This document shows positions 23,715-36,084 of a stretch of 43,830 nucleotides of DNA, one piece after another (positions within the stretch are counted from its first letter, which is position 1; every line of letters starts with the position of its first letter). Source of the DNA: a virus. Taxonomy: Duplodnaviria > Heunggongvirae > Uroviricota > Caudoviricetes. Position numbers and translations under genes: made by a program. The DNA is taken from the IMG/VR virus record IMGVR_UViG_2684622769_000012; one strand, written 5' to 3'. A model generated the notes under the pieces. That model ran no database searches, was not told where the DNA came from, and worked only from the letters and a program-made list of their open reading frames with translations.

Positions 23715-24208
23715 TGCTGACCCCACAAACAGATTTCACGCTCAATCTCACGACGAGTCATGAGACCTTTCCATTGCTTACCGCCAGCATATGTCCAGCG
23801 ACGTAGCTGATCACATGCGCCTTTGATATCGCCCTGGTTTATTTTGCGAAGAAGCGTCGATGTTCTGAAATTGCCAGCACCCACGTTGTAAACGAATGAG
23901 TAAAGAGCGCCGCGCGTTGTTTCCGGTATATCGACTTTGATGTACGGGTTAATTTGTCTGGCGACAGTGGCAAGGTCTTTATTCAAGAGTGTTTTGCATT
24001 CTGCTTTGGTATACGTTTTACCGAGCATGATGTCTTTTCCTGTATGCCCGTGACATACAGTCCATACACCAACAATATCTTTGTATGGTATGTAGCTGAC
24101 ACCTTCCAGACCATCGTTACCACTTGGGCCAGTGATTAACACTGATGCTATAGCAATTGCTCCGCCACCAATAGCAGCAGCAACGACTTTTCGTAATGAT
24201 GGAGGCAT
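23711..24208 (-). CDS. SAR endolysin (phage 21 R-type lysozyme with N-terminal signal-anchor-release domain)
   Basis: 165-aa ORF; N-terminus [18 protein letters not shown] (Gly/Ala-rich weakly hydrophobic SAR segment); start overlaps holin stop (ATGA). Confidence 0.85.
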
Positions 24209-24423
24209 TATTCACCTCTCGCAGCCTTGCGCTTATCTTCTTTAATCTTGAAATAAAGGTTTGTCAGGTACGTCAGCAGGCCAAATACCAGACTACCCAG
24301 CACACCGATTGCAGCCCACTGTGACGGAGTTACTCTATCGAGCAACTGTAAAAACCAGTAGCCAGCACTGCCTGCGGAGGTGCCGTAGGCAATGCCTGTT
24401 GAAATTTTGTCCATGGATTTCAT
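24208..24423 (-). CDS. Pinholin (phage 21 S-type holin) with dual-start motif
   Basis: [71 protein letters not shown] closely resembles S21 as I recall it; two TM segments; Met1 and Met4 (ATG 24421..24423 and 24412..24414); RBS GGAGGTGA upstream. Confidence 0.85.
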
Positions 24424-24674
24424 AGCCTCACCTCCGCACGGAACGGATGGCATAGTTATTATGTGTAGGCTTTCAGACACATCAATCAGAGCCTTAATTG
24501 ATATATATGCTGGAGACGATGCAATATAAAAAGCTCGCCGTAGCGAGCTAATAAAATGTATTTCTCTGATATTATGTTTATTTGTATTAGCTCAGACTTG
24601 ACATCACAGGTTTCGTATATAGAACATCATCAAATCTGTCAGTTTGCTATGAATGAGATATAGTAATTGAAGAG

Positions 24675-25070
24675 CTAACCTCGCATGTCAAAGCCAGATT
24701 TCTGAAAATCTCTGTAGACTTCCGGATTGTTGAAGGCCGGAAATTTGGCTTTATGAGCTGCGGACTTTATCGCTTCGCAATAGGCTTTATCACCGTTACT
24801 GGTAGATATTTTTAACGCCGTGCCATCCTGAGAGAATTCCATATGCAACCTGCATTTTTTCCCTTTCCAGTTATGCGGCTCATCAAGTTTGGCATTAATT
24901 GCAGCTCTGATTCCCCGCGCTTGCGCCCCCCATTCATCCTGATCATCCCAGCGTCCTGAACTGCAACTACCTGTAGCAGTAGTTTTGTGGCAATCTGAAG
25001 GGTGTAAAGGTGTGCATCCCGCAACAAAACCGACCCAAAAAGTCAACATAACGATTTTCTTTAATCCCAC
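24675..25070 (-). CDS. Lipoprotein with divergent TolA domain III-like C-terminus (paralogue of the upstream gene)
   Basis: 131-aa ORF; signal peptide with lipobox FVAGC; C-terminal pattern GKKCRLHMEF...DG..L.I....GDKAYCEAIKSAAHKAKFP....PEVYRDFQ parallels TolA-III. Confidence 0.6.
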   Translation of the reverse strand: MGLKKIVMLTFWVGFVAGCTPLHPSDCHKTTATGSCSSGRWDDQDEWGAQARGIRAAINAKLDEPHNWKGKKCRLHMEFSQDGTALKISTSNGDKAYCEAIKSAAHKAKFPAFNNPEVYRDFQKSGFDMRG

Positions 25071-25220
25071 TTCTTGCTCCTCAATCCATTAAAATCTCAG
25101 CAATAGTAGTTGTTACGTCCGCCACTGGCTCAGAGCTGACTATCCGCTAAATTTAGCTCAGTGCCGTAGCTGTGTCAGAACAAACCTAAGCCGAAACCGT
25201 TTATTACAAAACAATAAATA

Positions 25221-25649
25221 TCAGGGTTTAAAATCCAGCACCCCATTTTGAAATACTTTATATACTTCCGGCGAAGGGGGGGCAGGTATATCAGCATTCT
25301 TTATCGCATTCATCGCTTCACGACATAAATCGAGGTCTCCACTTTCTCTTTTAACCTCCAGTAGAAGGCCATTCGGGGCCATATGCATTCTCAGTGTACA
25401 CTCTTTTCCTGAATACTTACTCGCATCCCCGAACTGTTTTTCGATGGCGCTCTTGATTTGATGGGCATACAGACGGATATCCTCACTAACATCAGAAGTA
25501 CGTTCAGATGAACTCACATACTGTGTCTCTATTGCTTTATCGGAGTAATATGATGTACGGTCATGATAATTTGTCGATACAGCATCAGTGCACCCGATAA
25601 TAATCCCACTAATAATCAACGTAAGAATTGATGCGCTACGAAAACCCAT
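25221..25649 (-). CDS. Lipoprotein with TolA domain III-like C-terminal domain
   Basis: 142-aa ORF; lipobox IIIGC; C-terminal about 85 aa (HQIKSAIEKQFGDASKYSGKECTLRMHMAPNGLLLEVKRESGDLDLCREAMNAIKNADIPAPPSPEVYKVFQNGVLDFKP) closely parallels the E. coli TolA C-terminus as recalled. Confidence 0.7.
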   Translation of the reverse strand: MGFRSASILTLIISGIIIGCTDAVSTNYHDRTSYYSDKAIETQYVSSSERTSDVSEDIRLYAHQIKSAIEKQFGDASKYSGKECTLRMHMAPNGLLLEVKRESGDLDLCREAMNAIKNADIPAPPSPEVYKVFQNGVLDFKP

Positions 25650-26240
25650 TTTTCCTCACATATGTCATATAGTAAAGGATTATATATACCGTTGTTTTGG
25701 ACGCTCAAACAGCGAATCAGATCAAATAAAACGCACATTTGTTAACATTTACACAAAGTCTGCGTGGGATATTCTGAAAGAATATCCATAATGTGGAGAG
25801 AATCTATTGAAGTGCATGGTGCCGGGTGCCTCCCGGTGAACAAAATGTTCGTGATACCTGTCGGCGACAGAAAAGGTTAATGGTATCACCCCACCGCACA
25901 GGGGGATTCACCATGCAGGAGTTTTCTTAGCAAACTCACTGCGCGCCCGGCAACTCCCAACCACATAAAATGCGGAGTTTGTGGCATTTATGCATATAAC
26001 TCGCAGGAATTATCTTAAAAAACTGATGTCGATCCGGATTAAAAAGAAGCAGGTCATCATCAGATGACTGGAAAAAAGGAAAACAAAAAATACTCATCAT
26101 ACAGTTTTGATTGCAGGGATGAGCCTGCTATGCACAATATGCAGAATATAAGCAAGATAAAAATATGCAGGCATATTATTTCGGATCTTGTTATTAACAC
26201 AACCTTTTTAATAATCATTTGGCATACAATAAACCAGCCC

Positions 26241-26266
26241 AAAAAGAACCGCCTAAACAGGCGGTT
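26241..26266 (-). terminator. Rho-independent terminator-like hairpin (minus-strand sense) in the Q-to-late-gene intergenic region
   Basis: Plus strand aaccgcc-taaaca-ggcggtt (7-bp stem) preceded by aaaaag; on the minus strand the stem is followed by TTCTTTTT. Confidence 0.45.
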
Positions 26267-26510
26267 GGTCAATACAAAGGATGCTTCGTCTTTATTATAG
26301 TAATCTGAGGCGTCGGGTGTCTTGTATCAGACAACATATTGTCCCGCTAAACAGCGAATTACAAACCACCCTGCAATGATCTCTCATCTCATTTTATATG
26401 AGTTGACGACATCAGGATAACGCATCATCAGCCCCTGCCAAGAAATATCAAAACTCCCGCCAGCAATGTGTTATCACAATATTGTAAAAAAAACACAGCA
26501 CCGAAACTAT

Positions 26511-26693: not shown

Positions 26694-27236
26694 TCAAGCC
26701 ATTTTCTCAGCAAATGATTCACGCATGGGAATATATAGGGCATACTCAGCAACAGCTAACCAATTAGCAATCCGTTTTTCGCATGTGCTAAAACACCACT
26801 CTGGGTGTGCATCATTTAGCAATTCAGCCATTTTGCGCTTAGTCATCCCCCGCCCTTCATAGCGTTGCCGGAGAATGCAAATCAATCCTGGATGCTCTGC
26901 CAGCACCTCACTTATGACTCGATCAATACATAACGCCTCTGCATCAGTACAATGCGCCAGCCAGCTCTTTTGCTTGCCGTTGATCATCTCTCGCAAAAAC
27001 GCTTCCAGCTCAGCTTTCTCTATTCCCGCTTTTTTCATTCTGCGCAGGGCTTCATTAATGGCTGTTTTCGTCAGTTTTTTGGATGCCAACAACTGATTGA
27101 ACATATTCCCTGACCTGCCACCGCCAATATACGACCAGCGCCCCCACATACGTAGTTTTCCCTGAATCCAGACACTTTCCAGCGTGGTGAGGCGAAGGTG
27201 TTCTCCGCTTTTTCCTGTATTCGTTGGGTAAATCAT
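26694..27236 (-). CDS. Putative late-gene antiterminator (Q-like) protein
   Basis: 180-aa basic ORF located in the canonical Q position (after nin-like genes, before terminator, holin and endolysin); assignment mainly positional. Confidence 0.45.
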   Translation of the reverse strand: MIYPTNTGKSGEHLRLTTLESVWIQGKLRMWGRWSYIGGGRSGNMFNQLLASKKLTKTAINEALRRMKKAGIEKAELEAFLREMINGKQKSWLAHCTDAEALCIDRVISEVLAEHPGLICILRQRYEGRGMTKRKMAELLNDAHPEWCFSTCEKRIANWLAVAEYALYIPMRESFAEKMA

Positions 27237-28489: not shown

Positions 28490-28935
28490 AGTAGCCACAT
28501 GATAAGTTGCTGGAATCATATTTCCCACTCAAGTCATTAACATTTGATAAGATATATCTAAAAGGACGCCTTTACATTATTTATGCGTATATAATTTATT
28601 TATATACACAGTAAAGGTATCCTGGGAAAATATTTATCGTTAAAAAATACATCATAAATAATTAAGCTGAAATTTCAGAACACAACTAATACACACAATA
28701 AGGTTCAGTAACAGTAATCTATGTGGACTACATCGAGATTTTTTGATTAAACTTTAATAACTTATTCCTAACACACAGAATGCATAAACTAAAAGTAAAA
28801 CAAATAGTTATACGAAAAACAACCATATTTATTCTATCTTCTCCTCTAATCAACATATCAATTATGTGTTTCATAACAGCTTGACATAACCCTCCAAAAG
28901 ATGCATTTTTAATGCATGTTTTGGAGGAGGTGGTT

Positions 28936-29274
28936 ATGACACACAAGAGAATTCCTAAAGATTGGGTAATCAAACGCTCAACTCCGTTCTTCACAAAAGA
29001 GAACGTACCTTCAGCGTTATTAACACATCATAATACAGCAGCAGGTGTTTTTGGGCAGTTGTGCGTAATGGAAGGCACTGTAACATATTATGGTTTTACT
29101 GATGAGAATGCTACTGAACCGGAGATAAAAGTAGTCATTAATGCTGGCGCTTTTGCAACAAGCCCACCACAATACTGGCACCGTGTTGAACTAAGCGATG
29201 ATGCTCAGTTTAATATTAACTTTTGGGTCGCTCCAGACTTTTCGGGCGAAAAAGTCTATAGCACCAAAAAATAG
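28936..29274 (+). CDS. YeaR-like DUF1971 protein (TehB-N-terminal-domain-like), moron
   Basis: Start MTHKRIPKDW... (ATG 28936, RBS GGAGGAGGTGG upstream); RSTPFFTKENVPSALL...VMEGTVTYYGF...NINFWVAPDF parallels E. coli YeaR as recalled; opposite strand to surrounding phage genes. Confidence 0.65.
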   Translation: MTHKRIPKDWVIKRSTPFFTKENVPSALLTHHNTAAGVFGQLCVMEGTVTYYGFTDENATEPEIKVVINAGAFATSPPQYWHRVELSDDAQFNINFWVAPDFSGEKVYSTKK

Positions 29275-29303
29275 ATGATCATATTAAAAATGCTTTAACA
29301 GTC

Positions 29304-29340
29304 AGACCCGGCAGGGCTATCCCCGACGGGTCTCATTTTT
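29304..29340 (+). terminator. Candidate terminator after the YeaR-like gene
   Basis: agacccg ... cgggtct (7-bp stem, 16-nt loop) followed by CATTTTT. Confidence 0.4.
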
Positions 29341-29894
29341 GTAAATATATTGGTTCTACATTGACAGGAGACTTCAACCATAAGAAGTAATCTGAATACT
29401 TGAGCAATAAATTTACTTAAGATTAATGAGCGCACCTTGCCGGACAAAGATAAACCAAGGTAACACCTTTTTTCTAGCCAGTATGTAATCAATCAGAAAG
29501 CCGCTCCATAAGAACAACAGCAAGACAATAAATTGCCATTACAGCCGCAATAGCCAGCGCACATTTGAGAACCAGCACGACAACCCCCTGTATTAGACGC
29601 ACACCAGTCCTGATAAATATGAGGCTGTCTCGTCAGTGATTCAATACAACTATTGGGTATAGTTTCTGTGATTTTATTCTGTAGAAATGGAACACAACAA
29701 CCAGTCACCACCAGCACTTCCTTAAATGCTCTAAGTCAGAAACAAGCCAACATTTTAGTCCGCTTTGAGCGATCTGCAGACATTGCTAGCAGCCTTCTGT
29801 GTGAATTCTCAGGGAGCAGGTCGGCATAGCATCACGTTGAGGCTCTTACCCTACTTGTTCACACCAACCCTAACTCCACAGACTGATTCATAAA

Positions 29895-30896
29895 TTAGTA
29901 ATCTGCGTGTTTCGCACTTTTCAGAAATGCTTTCATATTTTCATTAGGTCGCTCAATTTCGAAGTTACTTCCATATAACTCTTGTAATTTTGGCCATAAC
30001 TTACTTAATAACCCTCTCCTGCGATAAAATGGATGTATCCAAACGGTAGATAGGTACGGAGAATTTGCATTTGAATTGTTTATTGTGACCAGCCCAACTA
30101 AACATTGTCGATAACCACTATTATCCATTGATTGTATTTCTTCGACGAATGGATACGCGATTACATCAGTCCAACCATGATCGGTTGTATCCCATTGCAT
30201 TCCGTCATGACATTCCTTCGACTGATAGCGGCGTAAAGCTACACACGCGAGCTTTTGCCAATCTGGAGAATTAATTGTGATCTCTTCATCGTATGACGCG
30301 CCTATTGGAGCGGGTATTGGTCTGATTAATCCAGCATGGCATTCATCATAGAACTTCATGTTTCCCTCAGAAACGTTGTGTACGTTGGGTTGCTCCATGT
30401 GTGCGCCATTCAAAAATAGCTCTGATAGTAGTGTATCTACACTGTAATCTTTATTGATTATTGTCGGCTTAGAGTTTTTCTTATTAAGGCCGCGAGTAAC
30501 GATTTTTTGATCAATGTTAACAACATGGAATAATCCGTCGGGGAGGCTAGCGAACCACGATGGGGCATCGGACCAGAATAGCATGCCTTTTGTACTTCTT
30601 AAGAGTTTAATTAAGTTAATACAAGCTTCTTCACTAGTCTTGCCGTTGATGCGAAGTATGTTAGGACTAAAGTAATATTCATCCATATCAGGGAATGCAG
30701 CTTCGCAAAACTCCTGTACATAATTTAGCACCTGGATTCTACAGAGATCATCATAGCTGGTAATAACTAAGGGGGTATCTTCATTACTATTATGATTATC
30801 AATAATGCAATCTATAGCGAGACTTACTGCTTTGCGTATCACTTCAGTTGAATCTAACGACTCTAAAAATTTTGTCTTTCGTGTGCGAATATCCAT
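29895..30896 (-). CDS. Hypothetical 333-aa protein, second gene of AT-rich accessory cassette (weak GNAT-like C-terminal motif)
   Basis: ATG 30894..30896 lies 15 nt after the stop of the upstream gene; AT-rich codon usage; C-terminal VWIHPFYRRRGLLSKLWPKL vaguely resembles the acetyl-CoA binding motif of GNATs; no other recognisable motif. Confidence 0.5.
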   Translation of the reverse strand: MDIRTRKTKFLESLDSTEVIRKAVSLAIDCIIDNHNSNEDTPLVITSYDDLCRIQVLNYVQEFCEAAFPDMDEYYFSPNILRINGKTSEEACINLIKLLRSTKGMLFWSDAPSWFASLPDGLFHVVNIDQKIVTRGLNKKNSKPTIINKDYSVDTLLSELFLNGAHMEQPNVHNVSEGNMKFYDECHAGLIRPIPAPIGASYDEEITINSPDWQKLACVALRRYQSKECHDGMQWDTTDHGWTDVIAYPFVEEIQSMDNSGYRQCLVGLVTINNSNANSPYLSTVWIHPFYRRRGLLSKLWPKLQELYGSNFEIERPNENMKAFLKSAKHADY

Positions 30897-30911
30897 GTAT
30901 GACCTGCGCTA

Positions 30912-31934
30912 TTAAAATTCATGAATGAACGGTTTGTCATCTGGTTGCAAAATGGTGGTTTTATTCGTTGCTACATTTAAACTGTTGTAGAGCATAATTG
31001 CCAGGTTCGATGCATTTTCAATCAGCGTTTCAAGATCCTGGTCTGTAATCACTACGAGGTTCCCTTCTTTATCCTTTCCACCACGATGCACTAAGTGATT
31101 TCGATTGAGGGTTGCCAATTCAATAGCTTCTATCGGACAGTCTTTTTGTACTTTTATATCGAATGTAGCTTCATAGCGGTCGATTACCTTTTTAGTGCTA
31201 TGCCAGCTTGCACTGATCAAGTGTTCCTTGATTGACCTGATTAGCTCTCCCCTAATTTTCTCGATGGGTTCACCCTTGAAAGGCAACGCAGCAATATCTT
31301 TGCTTACTTTAAATTCAGTCTTACCTTTTTCTATACAATTGGCTATGTAGACATCATCTTTCTCTATAGAATTAATGAATAGCTCAACATAAAGCGTTTC
31401 CAAAGCTGTAATAACATTCGTGTAGAGCAAACTAAGCAAGTGGTTTTTTTGCTGTTGTTCAGTTTTATCTTTTGCAAGTTTTTTTATTTTATCGATATTA
31501 TCAATGAATTTTAAATACGGATTACCGGAAGACGTTACAGCGTCGTAGATATCATCATCGTACCAATCATCTATATTATTTGAGTTTCCAGACCAGTCAA
31601 AACATTGTGTTTGTAATTCATCTACTAATTCCTCAATATACTCAGATTTAACATATTGACCGAAGATGGATTGTAGTTCTTCGCTCGCATCATACGGCCC
31701 GCCATATATGTAAGCATAGCCACCTTCTCTACTTTCATACGGACAAGCATTTGCCGGATCTTCAAAGTTTTCAAAGAACCAGTTTTTCATTACTTCGAGT
31801 TGATCTTTTTTGCTTATGTATTTTAAAGATTTTAGTGGAACTTTCTTTCCATTAACCTCGAAAACAATTTTCACGATGTAACGCTCCCTTGTATCAATTG
31901 CGCAACTATTATACCACAGCGAAATACAGGGCAT
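30912..31934 (-). CDS. Hypothetical about 340-aa protein with HEPN-like R-x4-H motif, first gene of AT-rich accessory cassette
   Basis: ORF 30912..32003; preferred start ATG 31932..31934 (MPCISLWYN...) with AGGAGG 6 nt upstream; alternative in-frame GTG at 31874 with AGGGAG upstream. Motif LNRNHLVHRGG near the C-terminus. Confidence 0.5.
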   Translation of the reverse strand: MPCISLWYNSCAIDTRERYIVKIVFEVNGKKVPLKSLKYISKKDQLEVMKNWFFENFEDPANACPYESREGGYAYIYGGPYDASEELQSIFGQYVKSEYIEELVDELQTQCFDWSGNSNNIDDWYDDDIYDAVTSSGNPYLKFIDNIDKIKKLAKDKTEQQQKNHLLSLLYTNVITALETLYVELFINSIEKDDVYIANCIEKGKTEFKVSKDIAALPFKGEPIEKIRGELIRSIKEHLISASWHSTKKVIDRYEATFDIKVQKDCPIEAIELATLNRNHLVHRGGKDKEGNLVVITDQDLETLIENASNLAIMLYNSLNVATNKTTILQPDDKPFIHEF

Positions 31935-32072
31935 AACCTGCCTCCTTAAACTAACATACCATGAGCCAGCAATGTCCGCTATTGGCACAAAGCGGACAAC
32001 CACGCTAGCTCTCCCCTGTGCCAGAAAAATGTCAATTTACATATGAACTAATGCTCTTTGATCTAGTAACGT

Positions 32073-32489
32073 CTATAAATACCGAAGATTTCCTTGATAA
32101 AATGCCAGTACACGTTTCATAACTTCACTCTTCCGGCACTCGCGACAGATTATGTTCTGACGCCTGTCATAGCGGCGTATTTCTCCGTCTGGTAATGACC
32201 AGATAAGGTCAGGATCAACCACAACCGTTTTTTTCACCTTTGCCCTGGATAGTTTTTTGCGGGCGTTTTTCCAATCCTTACGAGCCTGTTCAGACGGGAA
32301 TAACCCATAGCCAGAGTTGTATACATCGCCACTGGCAACCAACTCTCTGGCAAGAATGCTCATCAGATATCTTGTCGCACCTGTCTTGGCCTCCAGTTGC
32401 CTTAACGTCTCGCGCCCACTCTGGCGTACCAACTCAACAACCTGCTCCTTAATTTTTTCACGCTCTTCCTGTGTAAAAACTTTTGCCAT
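32073..32489 (-). CDS. Small basic hypothetical protein, possible winged-helix regulator, upstream of the accessory cassette
   Basis: Start MAKVFTQEEREKIKEQ (ATG 32487..32489) with GGAGG 6 nt upstream; C-terminal CRECRK; 138-nt gap to the next gene. Confidence 0.4.
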   Translation of the reverse strand: MAKVFTQEEREKIKEQVVELVRQSGRETLRQLEAKTGATRYLMSILARELVASGDVYNSGYGLFPSEQARKDWKNARKKLSRAKVKKTVVVDPDLIWSLPDGEIRRYDRRQNIICRECRKSEVMKRVLAFYQGNLRYL

Positions 32490-32504
32490 AAGCGCCTCCG
32501 GCAA

Positions 32505-33266
32505 TCACTTTTCCGACACAATACGACTGGAGGAATCGACAATCTGTCGGACAATATCCCGGTGCTTGTTCAGCTCCCGCAGCGCGGCGCAGACTCGCTC
32601 CCACTTCTGGACATGATTTTTCGCCCGACGCAGTTCGCGGTTTGCCATATGCAGCGATGGTAAAACTAGGTCATCCGCTTGCGTTTCAGTAAACGATGGC
32701 AGCGACTGCACAATGTCCGCCACAGTTTCTGTTTTAATATCTTCCTGTGTTGCCGCTTCCTGTACTGGTAACGCAACACCGGCTGGCTGAGGAAAGGCTT
32801 TACCATCAGTTTCCGCTACCGATGCAGCTTTCGGCTCTGCTGGTAAATTATCGCCCGGCATGCAGTAACGAAATTTACTGTTCTGGTTTACGCGAATCAG
32901 GCGTCCTTTGCTGATTGCCATTGCCAGCGTTGAAGCAACTTTGCGGGATGTTGTACCGAACAGCGTAGCCAGTTCATCCGCCGTTTGTGGTCCGCGTTGT
33001 TCAATCGTCGCGGTTAAATCGCACTCTGAGATTTTCACTACAGTTGCCGTGGTGGTTTCTTCCGGCAGTTCTGCCTGCATTGGCTGTTCCTGCTGAACGT
33101 TGTTATCAGCCACACGCCAGGTGTACGCGCTTTTATCAACGAAACCAGCTTTTTTCAGTTCCCATAGTTCGTTCAGCACTTCTTCACGACTGATATCAAG
33201 TCGCGCAGCAAGTTCTATGGATGTGGCTTTTCCCATTGCTTTCAGTGCGTCAAAAACAGTCTCCAT
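32505..33266 (-). CDS. Phage hypothetical protein (position of Rac ydaW), N-terminal HTH-like segment
   Basis: Start [43 protein letters not shown] (winged-helix-like), RBS GGGAGG upstream of ATG 33264..33266; downstream of the DnaC-like gene. Confidence 0.5.
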
Positions 33267-33288
33267 AAAAATTTCCTCCCGGTAAAAA

Positions 33289-34035
33289 TTACTTCTCAAT
33301 TCCTGGCTGGACGACATTCGGACGCCAGCTCTCCCAGTTAAAATTCACCCATCGCCCGCCGTTCATGGTCATGCGATCCATAATCCGCTCGCCGAGCAAT
33401 GTTTTCATGGCCTCATAGTTCAGGTTTGTCAGCATCCCCACGCTGCGCATCGACGCTGTCCGGCGATCAACAATCTGGTGCAGCACCACCTGCTCGTTTT
33501 TCGTCTCGCGCTGAATGCCAATTTCATCAAGAACCAGCAGATCCACTTCGCATAGTTCCCGCAAAAATTTTTCGCCTGACTGCCCATCGTCATAGCTGGC
33601 GTGCAGGGCACTCATAACATCAGCCACGGTAACCACAATCACTGTCTGACCGTCTTTCAGCAGGCGATTCCCGATAGCTGCCGCTAAGTGGTTCTTCCCG
33701 GTACCAGGTTTTCCGCTGAACGCAAAATTTGTACACCCGGTCATCAGTTCATCAGCGATGGATTTCGCCTGACTCAACGCGTATCGCTGCGCTTCGTTCT
33801 GCACCTGGTAATTCGAAAACGAGCATTTGCGGTGCAATGGCTGGATGCCAGAGCGATTCAGAATTTTTTCCACCCGCAACTGACGATTCTGACGGTTGAT
33901 CTCCTCACAACGTTTCTGGCCTTCGGAAAGTTGCCACTCGCGCCACTCCGCTACCGTCTTGAATGGCGCGGTTACATGTGACGGGGCCAGTCTGCGGATA
34001 CGTTCAAGAACGTCGCCTGTCGCAATATTTTTCAT
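33289..34035 (-). CDS. ydaV: Replication protein, DnaC/IstB-like AAA+ ATPase (helicase loader)
   Basis: 248-aa ORF with Walker A GKPGTGKN and Walker B-like LLVLDEIG. Confidence 0.8.
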
Positions 34036-34041
34036 GGTCAG

Positions 34042-34899
34042 TTACCCCCTGAAGCCTGGCGGGATCGCACTATCCGGTAACGAGACGGTGTTAACCTGTC
34101 GGAGTAACGTCTCAGGTCGAACACCTTTCGGCGCGAACAAGCCCTGGTATTCATTGGCGATGCTGTGTCGAATCACCTGCTCAGGTGAAAAACCCTGCTG
34201 GCGGAATTTTTCCAGCTCCCGTATCGCCCCGTTAGCGCCCTGCTCCGTTCGAATCGGTTTTCGCAATGCCTGGCGAAATTCAACCCACTCACGCCAAAGC
34301 GAGACAGAAATCCAGTTCGGCAAAGCAATATCCAGAGGGTCAAACTTTTTGACACCTCGATTCCCCCGGGGGGGATTTAGGGGGGGATCTGTTTTTAGAT
34401 CTTTATCTGTATCTTTATTAGTTGCCTTTGTGTTGACATCATGTTCAAACACCACTTCAACATCTGTTTGAACACCTGTTAAATTTCTCTCTTGTTTTGT
34501 TTGAACATCTGCTTCCTTTCTGCTTCTTCTGGCCTGAACAGATGCTTTTCCTGCGGCTGATTTTTTGGTTAATTTTTCCCTGACTGATGCCAGATCTTCC
34601 TCAATCCGAAGATGCACCCATTCCTCGCCGTTATCGCAAAAAAACTCCTGCAAGGATGGTTCAACATCAGCCCATCGCTCGTTAGTCAGACGGGCAATTT
34701 TTGCCAGCCTGTTTTTAGGTATTGGCTTTCCTGTTTGCCAGTAATTGAACATCAGCAACAAATACGCACCATGCTCCTCTGCTGACAAATGCATGGTGTC
34801 AGCCAGGTAATCAGCTATGTACAGTTGCATGTATGGTAATGCGGCCATAATTGCCCCGTATGATGCTGCCCGGTGGCTTAGAATAAGCACAAACAGCAT
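34042..34899 (-). CDS. ydaU: Replication initiation-associated protein YdaU (DUF1376)
   Basis: 285-aa ORF upstream of the DnaC-like gene; an internal Met at 34848 is an alternative start. Confidence 0.65.
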   Translation of the reverse strand: MLFVLILSHRAASYGAIMAALPYMQLYIADYLADTMHLSAEEHGAYLLLMFNYWQTGKPIPKNRLAKIARLTNERWADVEPSLQEFFCDNGEEWVHLRIEEDLASVREKLTKKSAAGKASVQARRSRKEADVQTKQERNLTGVQTDVEVVFEHDVNTKATNKDTDKDLKTDPPLNPPRGNRGVKKFDPLDIALPNWISVSLWREWVEFRQALRKPIRTEQGANGAIRELEKFRQQGFSPEQVIRHSIANEYQGLFAPKGVRPETLLRQVNTVSLPDSAIPPGFRG

Positions 34900-34911
34900 G
34901 GAAACTTTTGC

Positions 34912-35334
34912 TTAATGAACAATGACAGAATCGTCGGAAGACCCGCCGCCGCTGAAATGCGCTTTCCGGTAAACGGCTTGGACTGCATCATCATGCGCAT
35001 CAATTGCCGTACTTAACGCTTCCTGCGCCGCCAGTAATGCACGGCGTTCCAGGGTATCGAAGATGCAGAGTCGGTGACGCAGCTCGCGCGGAAGGATTGC
35101 CAGAATTGCTGGGATCAGCTTCTGAATTTTTTCTCTTTGCGTTTTCGTTTCACCTTTCAACCAACGGTGATAGATATTCTGCTGATTATTCCAGTCCTTG
35201 CCTGGTACCAGGGGCAATTCGCCGCCCCCCTGGCGCAGATATTCTTCAGTAATGGCATTGGCTACCCATGCCTGCCCTTTTTCGGCTGCCAGGGCTAACA
35301 ACACTGACTCGATGTGCTCATGCTTGATTTTCAT
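34912..35334 (-). CDS. ydaT: YdaT (CII-like regulator / putative toxin of Rac)
   Basis: 140-aa ORF MKIKHEHIESVLLALAAEKGQAWVANAITEEYL... matches Rac YdaT as recalled. Confidence 0.75.
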   Translation of the reverse strand: MKIKHEHIESVLLALAAEKGQAWVANAITEEYLRQGGGELPLVPGKDWNNQQNIYHRWLKGETKTQREKIQKLIPAILAILPRELRHRLCIFDTLERRALLAAQEALSTAIDAHDDAVQAVYRKAHFSGGGSSDDSVIVH

Positions 35335-35585
35335 GAATCAACTCCCATCAGCTTTTTCGTAGTAGTTTTATTTCTGCCAATAGTTAAAATTACATCAGCA
35401 GAAAATAATCCGTTTGATGCATGAGCGATTTTTTCAGCGTAATTTGTTTCGCCGGTATATTCTGTGCGAGGCAATTTTCCGTTATCCATCCATTTGTAGA
35501 TTGCTCTTTGGCTGACACCACAAACGTCGGCCACAACAGAAACGCGAACAGTTTTGATTACATCTTCAAGTGTTTTCTGGTTCAT
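35331..35585 (-). CDS. Cro-like HTH regulator (YdaS position)
   Basis: Start MNQKTLEDVIKTV (ATG 35583..35585), RBS GAGGGTGAT; HTH-like VADVCGVSQRAIYKWMDNGKLP; divergent from the repressor gene; 4-nt overlap with ydaT. Confidence 0.6.
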   Translation of the reverse strand: MNQKTLEDVIKTVRVSVVADVCGVSQRAIYKWMDNGKLPRTEYTGETNYAEKIAHASNGLFSADVILTIGRNKTTTKKLMGVDS

Positions 35586-35664
35586 ATCACCCTCACAATG
35601 TGAACTTTGAGTACATGCTATAACAGAACTGACAGTACATTCAAGAGTGAATATCATTGAACTT
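35586..35664. promoter_or_regulatory. Divergent immunity-region promoter/operator between cro-like and repressor genes
   Basis: 79-nt intergenic region with direct repeats AGTACAT (35610..35616, 35634..35640) and TGAACTT (35601..35607, 35658..35664). Confidence 0.4.
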
Positions 35665-36084
35665 ATGGTTCATGAAGATAAAGCGCGTAAAGAGTTCGCC
35701 AGTAGGCTTGCGCTAGCCTGTGAAAACGCTGGTTATGAACAACATGGAAGGCAGGCAGAAATTGCCCGTCGAATGAAATTAACACCAAAAGCGGTTAGCA
35801 AATGGTTTAATGGCGAAACAATTCCTCGCCGAGAGAAATTAAGGGAATTAGCAACACTCATTGGAACAACACCAACCTATCTTTTGGGAGAGGATACAGA
35901 AGAAAGTGGACAGGTACGTTTCTATCAGGAGTTAAATCCAAGACAAAAAATCATCATTGACCTTCTGGACGAGCTCCCTGACAGTGAGACAGATGAACTT
36001 TTAAAAACTCTTGAGGAGAAAAAACAGAAGTACAATGCAATTTACGAAGAGCTAGCACGAAAGAAAAAACAAAAAGCCTCTTAA
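35647..36084 (+). CDS. CI-type repressor, XRE-family HTH (RacR position)
   Basis: HTH segment QAEIARRMKLTPKAVSKWFNGE; the ORF begins at GTG 35647; first ATG at 35665 (MVHEDKARKEF); acidic/basic C-terminal tail. Length differs from the 158-aa K-12 RacR as I recall it. Confidence 0.65.
   Translation: MNIIELMVHEDKARKEFASRLALACENAGYEQHGRQAEIARRMKLTPKAVSKWFNGETIPRREKLRELATLIGTTPTYLLGEDTEESGQVRFYQELNPRQKIIIDLLDELPDSETDELLKTLEEKKQKYNAIYEELARKKKQKAS

Follow-up and report, generated by a model that had tools for sequence, protein, structure and literature searches.

TolA domain III (TolA-III), TolA's C-terminal domain, is the handle engaged by g3p of filamentous phages and by colicins A, N, K and E1, and, via the N-terminus of TolB, by the E-type nuclease colicins. 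A long-known form of exclusion arises when TolA is occupied, either by filamentous-phage g3p or by colicin T-domains present in the periplasm. Among phage-encoded lipoproteins, Cor (from phi80, N15 and the mEp phages) and Llp (from T5) reside in the outer membrane and block FhuA, and Bor is a lipoprotein encoded by a moron of lambda. Here, we describe two neighbouring genes of a Rac-type E. coli prophage, tlpA1 and tlpA2, at positions 24,675 to 25,649 of a 43,830-nucleotide stretch of caudovirus DNA (IMG/VR record IMGVR_UViG_2684622769_000012, the whole of which is referred to below as the window), whose products, as read from their sequences and predicted structures, are lipoprotein-anchored mimics of TolA domain III. 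Our preferred interpretation, held with confidence a little short of even, is that the two proteins act as outer-membrane-tethered decoys, giving the cell tolerance to Tol-dependent bacteriocins and filamentous phages.

The closest described protein is TolA itself (domain III at E. coli residues ~334-421; PDB entries 1TOL, 2X9A, 3QDP/3QDR and 1S62), with which both products share the fold (template modelling (TM) scores of 0.92-0.96), the disulfide and a G-K-x-C motif, TlpA1 being 59% identical and keeping both the LDFKP of strand beta3 and most of helix alpha2. They differ from TolA in having neither the transmembrane anchor that interacts with TolQR nor the long helical domain II, and their genes belong to the late part of a Rac prophage and not to the ybgC-tolQRA-tolB-pal-cpoB cluster. 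Since they would be held by a lipid anchor, probably in the outer and not the inner membrane, they cannot transmit proton-motive force; by sequence and fold they are members of the TolA_C family, but they are not TolA. Like Cor, Llp and Bor, which are small accessory lipoproteins of temperate or lytic coliphages, they would work in the periplasm, on the inner side of the outer membrane, and guard the cell against incoming agents; none of these three families appeared among the profile matches of TlpA1 and TlpA2. Cor and Llp act by plugging a receptor in the outer membrane; TlpA would imitate a periplasmic co-receptor of the host and titrate the invader. Exclusion by g3p or by colicin T-domains uses the same interface, that of g3p-N1 or the T-domain with TolA-III, and the outcome expected is the same, namely tolerance to group A colicins and resistance to superinfection by Ff phages, but the TlpA proteins would be its mirror image, with the host partner copied, the ligand sequestered and the real TolA left free. 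Finally, a lipid-anchored TolA-III protein of ~123 residues encoded by Klebsiella ColRNAI plasmids shares the architecture; it differs in being only 39% identical to TlpA1, in being partnered by a Sec-exported TonB_C protein and in being linked to a klebicin/cloacin-type operon and not to phage lysis genes.

Two short lipoproteins with the TolA-III fold

The open reading frame (ORF) of tlpA1 (25221..25649, minus strand) encodes a 142-residue lipoprotein whose domain III resembles that of E. coli TolA, and the ORF of tlpA2 (24675..25070, minus strand) encodes a lipoprotein of 131 residues that combines a diverged domain III with a conserved cysteine-rich N-terminal segment. The first starts with ATG preceded by the Shine-Dalgarno sequence GAGGA and the second with GTG preceded by GAGGAG. 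In each product, a basic n-region and a hydrophobic core lead into a lipobox, which is I-I-G-C20 in TlpA1 (signal peptide MGFRSASILTLIISGIIIG-C20; 25590..25649, minus strand) and V-A-G-C19 in TlpA2 (signal peptide MGLKKIVMLTFWVGFVAG-C19; 25014..25070, minus strand), both being followed by threonine at position +2. Both sequences (IIGC-T and VAGC-T) carry the signature for sorting to the outer membrane, a lipobox of the form [LVI][ASTVI][GAS]C without aspartate at +2, and it is from the lipobox and the threonine that lipidation and outer-membrane localization are predicted.

Profile comparison places both proteins in the Pfam family TolA_C (PF06519), TlpA1 scoring 82.6 bits (E=2.4e-23) and TlpA2 54.6 bits (E=1.3e-14) against a gathering cut-off of 25 bits, and they match the TolA-III sequences of the PDB with E=5e-28 and E=5e-9, respectively. 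Residues 55-142 of TlpA1 align without gaps to TolA 334-421, with 52 of the 88 positions identical (59%), the LDFKP motif included. In the AlphaFold2 (AF2) models, the globular domain occupies residues 51-142 of TlpA1 (25224..25499, minus strand), with a predicted local distance difference test score (pLDDT) of ~90, and residues 40-131 of TlpA2 (24678..24953, minus strand), with pLDDT of 82-96, while residues 1-50 of TlpA1 fall below 50; the first 40-50 residues of both proteins are modelled as signal peptide and a disordered tether of 20-35 residues, the linker of TlpA1 being roughly 30 long. Foldseek matches the TlpA1 model to 2x9a_B (TM 0.96, root-mean-square deviation 0.7 A) and the TlpA2 model to 3qdp (TM 0.92, 1.1 A), where TolA-III is bound to g3p and to colicin A, respectively, and the order of the modelled secondary structure, H-E-E-H-H-E, is the alpha-beta-beta-alpha-alpha-beta of TolA-III. 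The cysteines that form the C363-C388 disulfide (TolA numbering) are both present in TlpA1 and in TlpA2. An earlier note on this DNA, made from the letters alone, had described two minus-strand genes of 142 and 131 amino acids with lipoboxes IIIGC and FVAGC, and had set the first beside an E. coli TolA C-terminus with which it agreed at more than half of its positions, including LDFKP; the coordinates, strand, lengths, sequences and lipoboxes all hold, the TolA sequence given there agrees with that in the PDB, and the alignment and structural superposition bear out its structural reading.

A further element of TlpA2 lies in residues 19-46 (window ~24933-25016), which read C-x-PLHPS-x-C-HKTTA-x-GSC-SSGRWDDQDEW and hold two conserved cysteines beyond the one predicted to be lipidated. 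The segment is almost invariant between genera, with ratios of nonsynonymous to synonymous substitution (dN/dS; pairwise values here and below, computed separately for the domain and the N-terminal part) of 0.01-0.10, and because of this near-invariance it probably has a function beyond that of a linker; the AF2 model is not confident there.

Ligand surfaces of the two domains

On TolA, the site used by g3p, colicin N (ColN) and TolB has been mapped by mutagenesis to helix alpha2 (334-349) and strand beta3 (412-421) (PMC4339652), and that of colicin A (ColA) to the strand 375-380 together with Lys368, Lys379 and Lys396 (PMC3365938). TlpA1 is identical to TolA at 11/16 positions of helix alpha2, at 7/10 of the beta3 region, where L417-D418-F419-K420 and the whole LDFKP are intact, and at 3/6 of the ColA strand, and it keeps 2/3 of the lysines that make cation-pi contacts with ColA; the corresponding values for TlpA2 are 4/16, 2/10, 2/6 and 0/3. 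In neither protein was a proline found in beta3. Judged by sequence, the contact residues of TlpA1 are compatible with ligand binding, which is not to say that they prove it. The published affinities for TolA-III span a wide range, ColN binding at ~1-3 uM and g3p-N1 at ~12-15 uM (PMC4339652), and TolB, the N-terminus of which binds through backbone strand augmentation, at 40-200 uM (PMC7391070).

Two lineages under selection and their annotation

TlpA1 and TlpA2 are only ~28% identical to each other, and TlpA1 is far nearer to TolA than to TlpA2. The low identity indicates two separate lineages of one family and not a recent tandem duplication, so that where the earlier note had spoken of a paralogous tandem, it was right about the family, both proteins falling in PHROG 5772 (labelled 'unknown function'), and overstated how closely they are related. 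Both ORFs are intact and under purifying selection, with dN/dS of 0.06-0.15 for the TolA-III domain of tlpA2, 0.09-0.34 for that of tlpA1 and 0.2-0.6 for the tlpA1 linker, and recombination is evident between tlpA1 variants. The lipobox cysteine of TlpA1 is kept in variants at 91%, 74% and 66% identity, and the lipobox of TlpA2 is kept between genera.

In the RefSeq/PGAP annotation of two genomes with a 100% match to window 24600-25750, tlpA1 appears as a tolA pseudogene of 261 bp ('incomplete, missing N-terminus'); tlpA2 is started at an internal methionine, giving 124 residues, and its plasmid orthologues are over-extended N-terminally to 143. Each of these annotations masks the signal peptide and lipobox, and the lipoprotein nature of the proteins is thus hidden in public records. 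We rejected the pseudogene reading of tlpA1 on the strength of its intact ORF, its conserved lipobox and its dN/dS, and on this sequence evidence the RefSeq label is wrong. The misleading TolA names have their source in partial matches to TolA equivalog models: against NCBIfam NF007065 the proteins score 107.8 bits (TlpA1) and 53.7 bits (TlpA2), neither reaching the cut-off of 213, and against TIGR02794 TlpA1 scores 75.6 for a cut-off of 59.45, covering only model positions 265-362, with TlpA2 at 47.2, below it. Such naming ('cell envelope integrity protein TolA', tolA pseudogene) hides the family and can confuse tolA calls. The existence of proteins with a TolA C-terminal domain is not new, these being annotated, not understood; what appears unexplored is their lipoprotein architecture, how systematically they are associated with mobile elements, and the decoy hypothesis. 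The earlier note was aware of no characterised phage system of this kind, which agrees with the literature searched, with the reservation that the domain was already recognised by Pfam, NCBI and PHROGs.

A mobile cassette between Q and the holin

As judged from a genome that matches window 24600-25750 at 100%, the host element is a fairly complete Rac prophage with the gene order intR-xisR-ralR-recET-kilR-sieB ... hokD-DUF1367-YbcO-DUF1133(Q-like)-[tlpA1-tlpA2]-essD-rrrD-Rz-trkG-ynaK-terminase-capsid-tail, in which trkG follows the lysis genes, as it does in the Rac prophage of K-12. The slot that holds the pair is bounded upstream by the gene of a DUF1133 Q-like late antiterminator (26694..27236, minus strand; Pfam DUF1133 E=2.5e-107, with a weak match to Phage_antitermQ, E=8.6e-6) and downstream by that of a P21-type holin S (essD; 24208..24480, minus strand; Pfam Phage_holin_2_1 E=4.5e-35), followed by lysozyme and Rz/Rz1. 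This is the position between Q and the holin that the earlier note had named, and its remark that Shiga toxin (stx) genes occupy the same place in Stx phages is matched by a 66%-identical variant of tlpA1, which sits where stx lies in Stx-like prophages.

Immediately upstream of tlpA1 is a full-length match to the STnc100 family of prophage small RNAs (sRNAs; 25760..25946, minus strand; Rfam RF02076, 86.6 bits for a gathering score of 47), which forms the upstream edge of the mobile module and invariably accompanies the tlpA pair and the holin gene, and which a 2026 preprint describes as a known prophage sRNA related to PasD of Stx-type prophages. A sigma-70 promoter-like site, TTGAGC-18-TATAAT (25679..25708, minus strand), has 10/12 consensus matches, ends 30 nt upstream of the tlpA1 ATG and is nearly kept in the 91% variant. 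Between tlpA2 and the holin gene, a hairpin with the character of an intrinsic terminator, AGCTCGC-TACG-GCGAGCT, is followed by the T-run TTTTTAT (24532..24549, minus strand), and its position would suit a moron that insulates the lysis genes in the lysogen.

A 97%-identical copy of the block from STnc100 to the holin gene (24207-25937; STnc100-tlpA1-tlpA2-holin) is present in mEp460_ev081, a temperate phage that has been isolated, where it is flanked by a different Q and a different endolysin and where homology stops at the holin stop codon, which marks the downstream edge of the co-mobile module. The same block is found without Rac-type neighbours in at least 30, all with enough flank, of 80 IMG/VR prophage contigs, the matches in that scan being near-identical copies only, informative on the variability of the flanks and not on diversity. 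Its exchange among phage backbones that differ in Q and endolysin is the behaviour of a mobile moron cassette, and the best explanation is that tlpA1 and tlpA2 are prophage cargo (moron) genes, the slot and the mobility being observed, the terminator being clear and the promoter being a consensus match only. Expression of the pair in the lysogen would be driven from this putative promoter.

Two further observations concern the surrounding prophage. Some 400 nt downstream of the DUF1133 gene, window 26235-26323 (minus strand) contains a promoter-like AAGACA-18-TATAAT with a strong terminator hairpin, AACCGCCTGTTTAGGCGGTT, and a T-run within ~30 nt, an element that may be the pR'/tR' late-promoter unit acted on by this Q. 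Between hokD and the replication genes, window ~28600-35900 (coordinates taken by correspondence with the matching genome locus L005 24868-31118) carries what is apparently non-phage cargo, namely genes for an MFS transporter, a gamma-glutamylcyclotransferase, a LysR regulator, a DUF2254 protein and a BCCT transporter. A prophage gene of EDL933 named 'TolA' and induced 32-fold by ciprofloxacin (PMC11125564) was also considered and was rejected, as the supplement gives it as a tail-fibre protein.

Distribution and plasmid-borne relatives

The full pair is present at 99% identity or above in 774 of 5426 complete E. coli genomes (~14%). Relatives of tlpA1 at 91%, 74% and 66% identity occur in E. 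coli and Shigella only, always in the Q-to-holin interval of lambdoid prophages and either with or without tlpA2, the 66% variant lying in the Stx-phage-like late region upstream of nanS-p/DUF1378/DUF826/holin. The clade of tlpA2 is broader, with at least 368 clusters at 90% identity, and among representative genomes it occurs in those of 27 species, almost all of them Enterobacterales. The homologue of Enterobacter, Serratia and K. oxytoca is a single gene at unrelated chromosomal sites, that of Serratia adjoining GmrSD and HEPN defence genes, and both chromosomal and plasmid homologues stand alone, with no lysis genes nearby; the variety of these chromosomal sites implies that function needs no phage partners. 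An exhaustive profile search extended the family to 574 representatives at 50% identity clustering, and among the best 150 of these, 62 are short lipoproteins (median 132 residues), none of the 62 having aspartate at +2. The members that are named carry domain-derived names only, and all come from Enterobacterales.

Many relatives are carried by plasmids. An orthologue 88% identical to tlpA2 is found on ~600 of them, and in all four I-complex conjugative plasmids examined (IncK2/Z and IncI1/B/O, of mating-pair formation type MPF_I; loci L099 5965-6396 and L134, L135 and L136 3965-4396) it follows nikA-nikB on the same strand at a distance of 68 nt and is, from this arrangement, probably co-transcribed with them. 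On pO157-type plasmids (locus L003 5815-6246) it follows a truncated remnant of nikB and lies beside toxB fragments. An assignment of the plasmid copy to an F-type 'leading region' was rejected, given that the gene follows the nikB remnant on pO157 and nikAB on the intact I-complex plasmids. The I-pili made by such plasmids are the receptor of the filamentous phage If1, for which TolA-III is the co-receptor, and PDB 2x9a, the structure matched by the TlpA1 model, is the complex of If1 g3p with TolA-III.

A second plasmid setting is that of the 10-12 kb ColRNAI bacteriocin plasmids of Klebsiella, which encode a 123-residue TolA-III lipoprotein with the lipobox LTAC and LDFRP as its C-terminus. 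Through an overlap of stop and start codons, its gene is translationally coupled to one for a Sec-exported TonB_C protein, that is, a TonB C-terminal domain, and the two genes adjoin klebicin-immunity-lysis genes; on the 10-kb K. pneumoniae plasmid p1_020030 (NZ_CP028788.2; locus L002 4908-5641) the two diverge from a klebicin tRNase-immunity-lysis operon. TolA-like genes of the ColRNAI type occur on hundreds of Klebsiella plasmids, and in the one report that we cite the gene is merely noted as 'TolA protein' (PMC10269471). The gene arrangement suggests paired decoys for the Tol and Ton import routes. Separately, the K. pneumoniae plasmid pCuAs (IncFIB/FII type; locus L100 4229-5258) encodes a short TolA_C protein of 144 residues preceded by a gene of the thioredoxin fold, the product of which, going by its position, may be a dedicated partner that forms the TolA-III disulfide.

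Proposed decoys for bacteriocins and filamentous phages

If the proteins are decoys, each would suspend a TolA domain III in the periplasm on its flexible tether of 20-35 residues and, being uncoupled from the TolQR motor, would catch g3p-N1, colicin translocation domains or the TolB N-termini exposed by E-type colicins near the point of entry. Ligands captured in this way would never reach the energised TolA and import would stall, leaving the lysogen tolerant to Tol-dependent bacteriocins and resistant to phages of the Ff/If1 type. TlpA1 would serve as the close mimic of E. coli TolA-III, while TlpA2, which keeps the fold and the open beta3 edge, would probably cover other ligands, because its side chains differ. 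As the parasite ligands bind at ~1-15 uM and TolB at 40-200 uM, a modest amount of decoy could protect without causing a full tol defect. The contact residues of TlpA1, the predicted outer-membrane location, the promoter and terminator signals, and the homologues on bacteriocin plasmids and I-pilus plasmids all make the decoy reading more plausible, and the contexts in which the genes are found, namely bacteriocin plasmids, I-pilus plasmids, the neighbourhood of defence genes and prophage moron slots, fit it. Levengood-Freyermuth, Click and Webster are said to have reported, in J Bacteriol in 1993, that TolA-III placed in the periplasm of wild-type E. coli led to colicin tolerance and to leakiness. 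Both ligand binding and a protective phenotype are inferred for TlpA1 and TlpA2. The earlier note had likewise put forward a decoy that gives superinfection exclusion or colicin tolerance; its structural reading is right, and this functional hypothesis is a reasonable one.

Several points weigh against decoys. The candidate promoter is a 10/12 consensus match alone, the 74% and 66% variants of tlpA1 have no such site upstream, and a location 3' of Q predicts late expression, at the time of induction. Conservation at the contact positions does not significantly exceed that elsewhere in the domain (Fisher p=0.5 for TlpA1; also 0.34 and 0.83), and in TlpA2 most side chains of the two mapped interfaces are gone (6/26 and 2/9 kept). 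An arms race with variable toxins would explain the tight conservation of TlpA2 across genera (dN/dS ~0.1) less well than would binding to a conserved host partner. Decoys of this kind might, in addition, tie up TolB, and the resulting sensitivity to bile or detergents would carry a cost in the gut. Finally, no functional study of TolA-III lipoproteins of this type was found in the literature, and a PADLOC scan returned no match, this being a family for which PADLOC has no model.

The chief alternative is that the pair modulates Tol-Pal via TolB: the tethered domains would engage TolB by its N-terminus at the outer membrane and so damp or redirect the mobilisation of Pal; possible outcomes include more vesiculation, a looser link between the outer membrane and peptidoglycan that aids spanin lysis and virion release, or an altered envelope in the lysogen. 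The genes lie in a late operon between Q and the holin that would be read through on induction, the holin always accompanies the pair, and the beta3 edge to which TolB binds is intact in both copies; since strand augmentation by TolB is backbone-based, the side-chain divergence of TlpA2 need not abolish it, and the conservation of TlpA2 between genera, cysteine-rich segment included, fits a conserved host target. We nonetheless consider this explanation unlikely, if far from negligible, given that a terminator separates the cassette from the holin gene, that the affinity of TolA for TolB is very low (40-200 uM) and that 14% of E. coli genomes keep the pair although a constitutive tol phenotype would be a burden in bile. 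A perturbation of Tol-Pal at the lysis stage in particular, the alternative raised in the earlier note, is weakened by the stand-alone chromosomal and plasmid copies, which have no lysis genes nearby.

Other ligands altogether are a somewhat more doubtful proposition. TlpA2 could have a role in I-type conjugation, such as passage through the envelope, entry or surface exclusion, or shielding of the donor cell; alternatively, both proteins could protect from other toxins that cross the periplasm, such as effectors of contact-dependent inhibition or of type VI secretion systems. The probable co-transcription of its orthologue with nikA-nikB on IncK2/Z and IncI1/B/O plasmids points this way, as do the divergence of the mapped TolA ligand surfaces in TlpA2 and its strictly conserved extra N-terminal segment, which AF2 does not place. 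Against this, the same clade includes single chromosomal genes without conjugation genes and genes in prophages, TlpA1 is so like E. coli TolA-III that binding of the canonical ligands is the simplest assumption, and to our knowledge no conjugation function uses the TolA-III fold. That the pair is non-functional debris, consisting of tolA fragments captured by illegitimate recombination, has in its favour the PGAP pseudogene flag in the two genomes that match the segment at 100% and the scores of both proteins below the NF007065 cut-off; it is nevertheless very improbable, the ORFs being complete with start codon, Shine-Dalgarno sequence, signal peptide and lipobox, and hundreds of distinct cluster representatives sharing the architecture. 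The dN/dS values, which are well under 1 in the domain, and the lipoboxes, retained in variants as distant as 66% identity, rule out the pseudogene reading.

Beyond this locus, the decoy reading can be extended, more tentatively than for the tlpA pair itself, to a widespread and so far unrecognised class of 'import-machinery decoys' on enterobacterial mobile elements, be they lambdoid prophages, conjugative plasmids of the I-complex, bacteriocin plasmids or chromosomal islets. These would consist of lipid-tethered TolA-III and, on some plasmids, also of secreted TonB C-terminal domains, intercepting Tol- and Ton-dependent bacteriocins and pilus-specific filamentous phages in the periplasm, and would provide a broad tolerance that is independent of the receptor.

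Implications for Tol-dependent import

If TlpA1 and TlpA2 are decoys, they would represent a new mode of lysogenic conversion and of tolerance to bacteriocins and phages, in which a periplasmic co-receptor is copied rather than a surface receptor blocked, and one carried by about one in seven sequenced E. coli, by pO157 and by many resistance plasmids of the IncK/IncI complex. This would bear on the colicin insensitivity of many natural E. coli isolates, and on the design of antimicrobials based on colicins and klebicins and of tools based on filamentous phages. It would equally bear on how conjugative plasmids offset pilus-borne phage susceptibility, which, were the broader class of import-machinery decoys real, they would do by countering a weakness caused by their own pili. 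For the Tol-Pal field, the family would supply natural, evolution-tuned variants of TolA-III with altered ligand surfaces.

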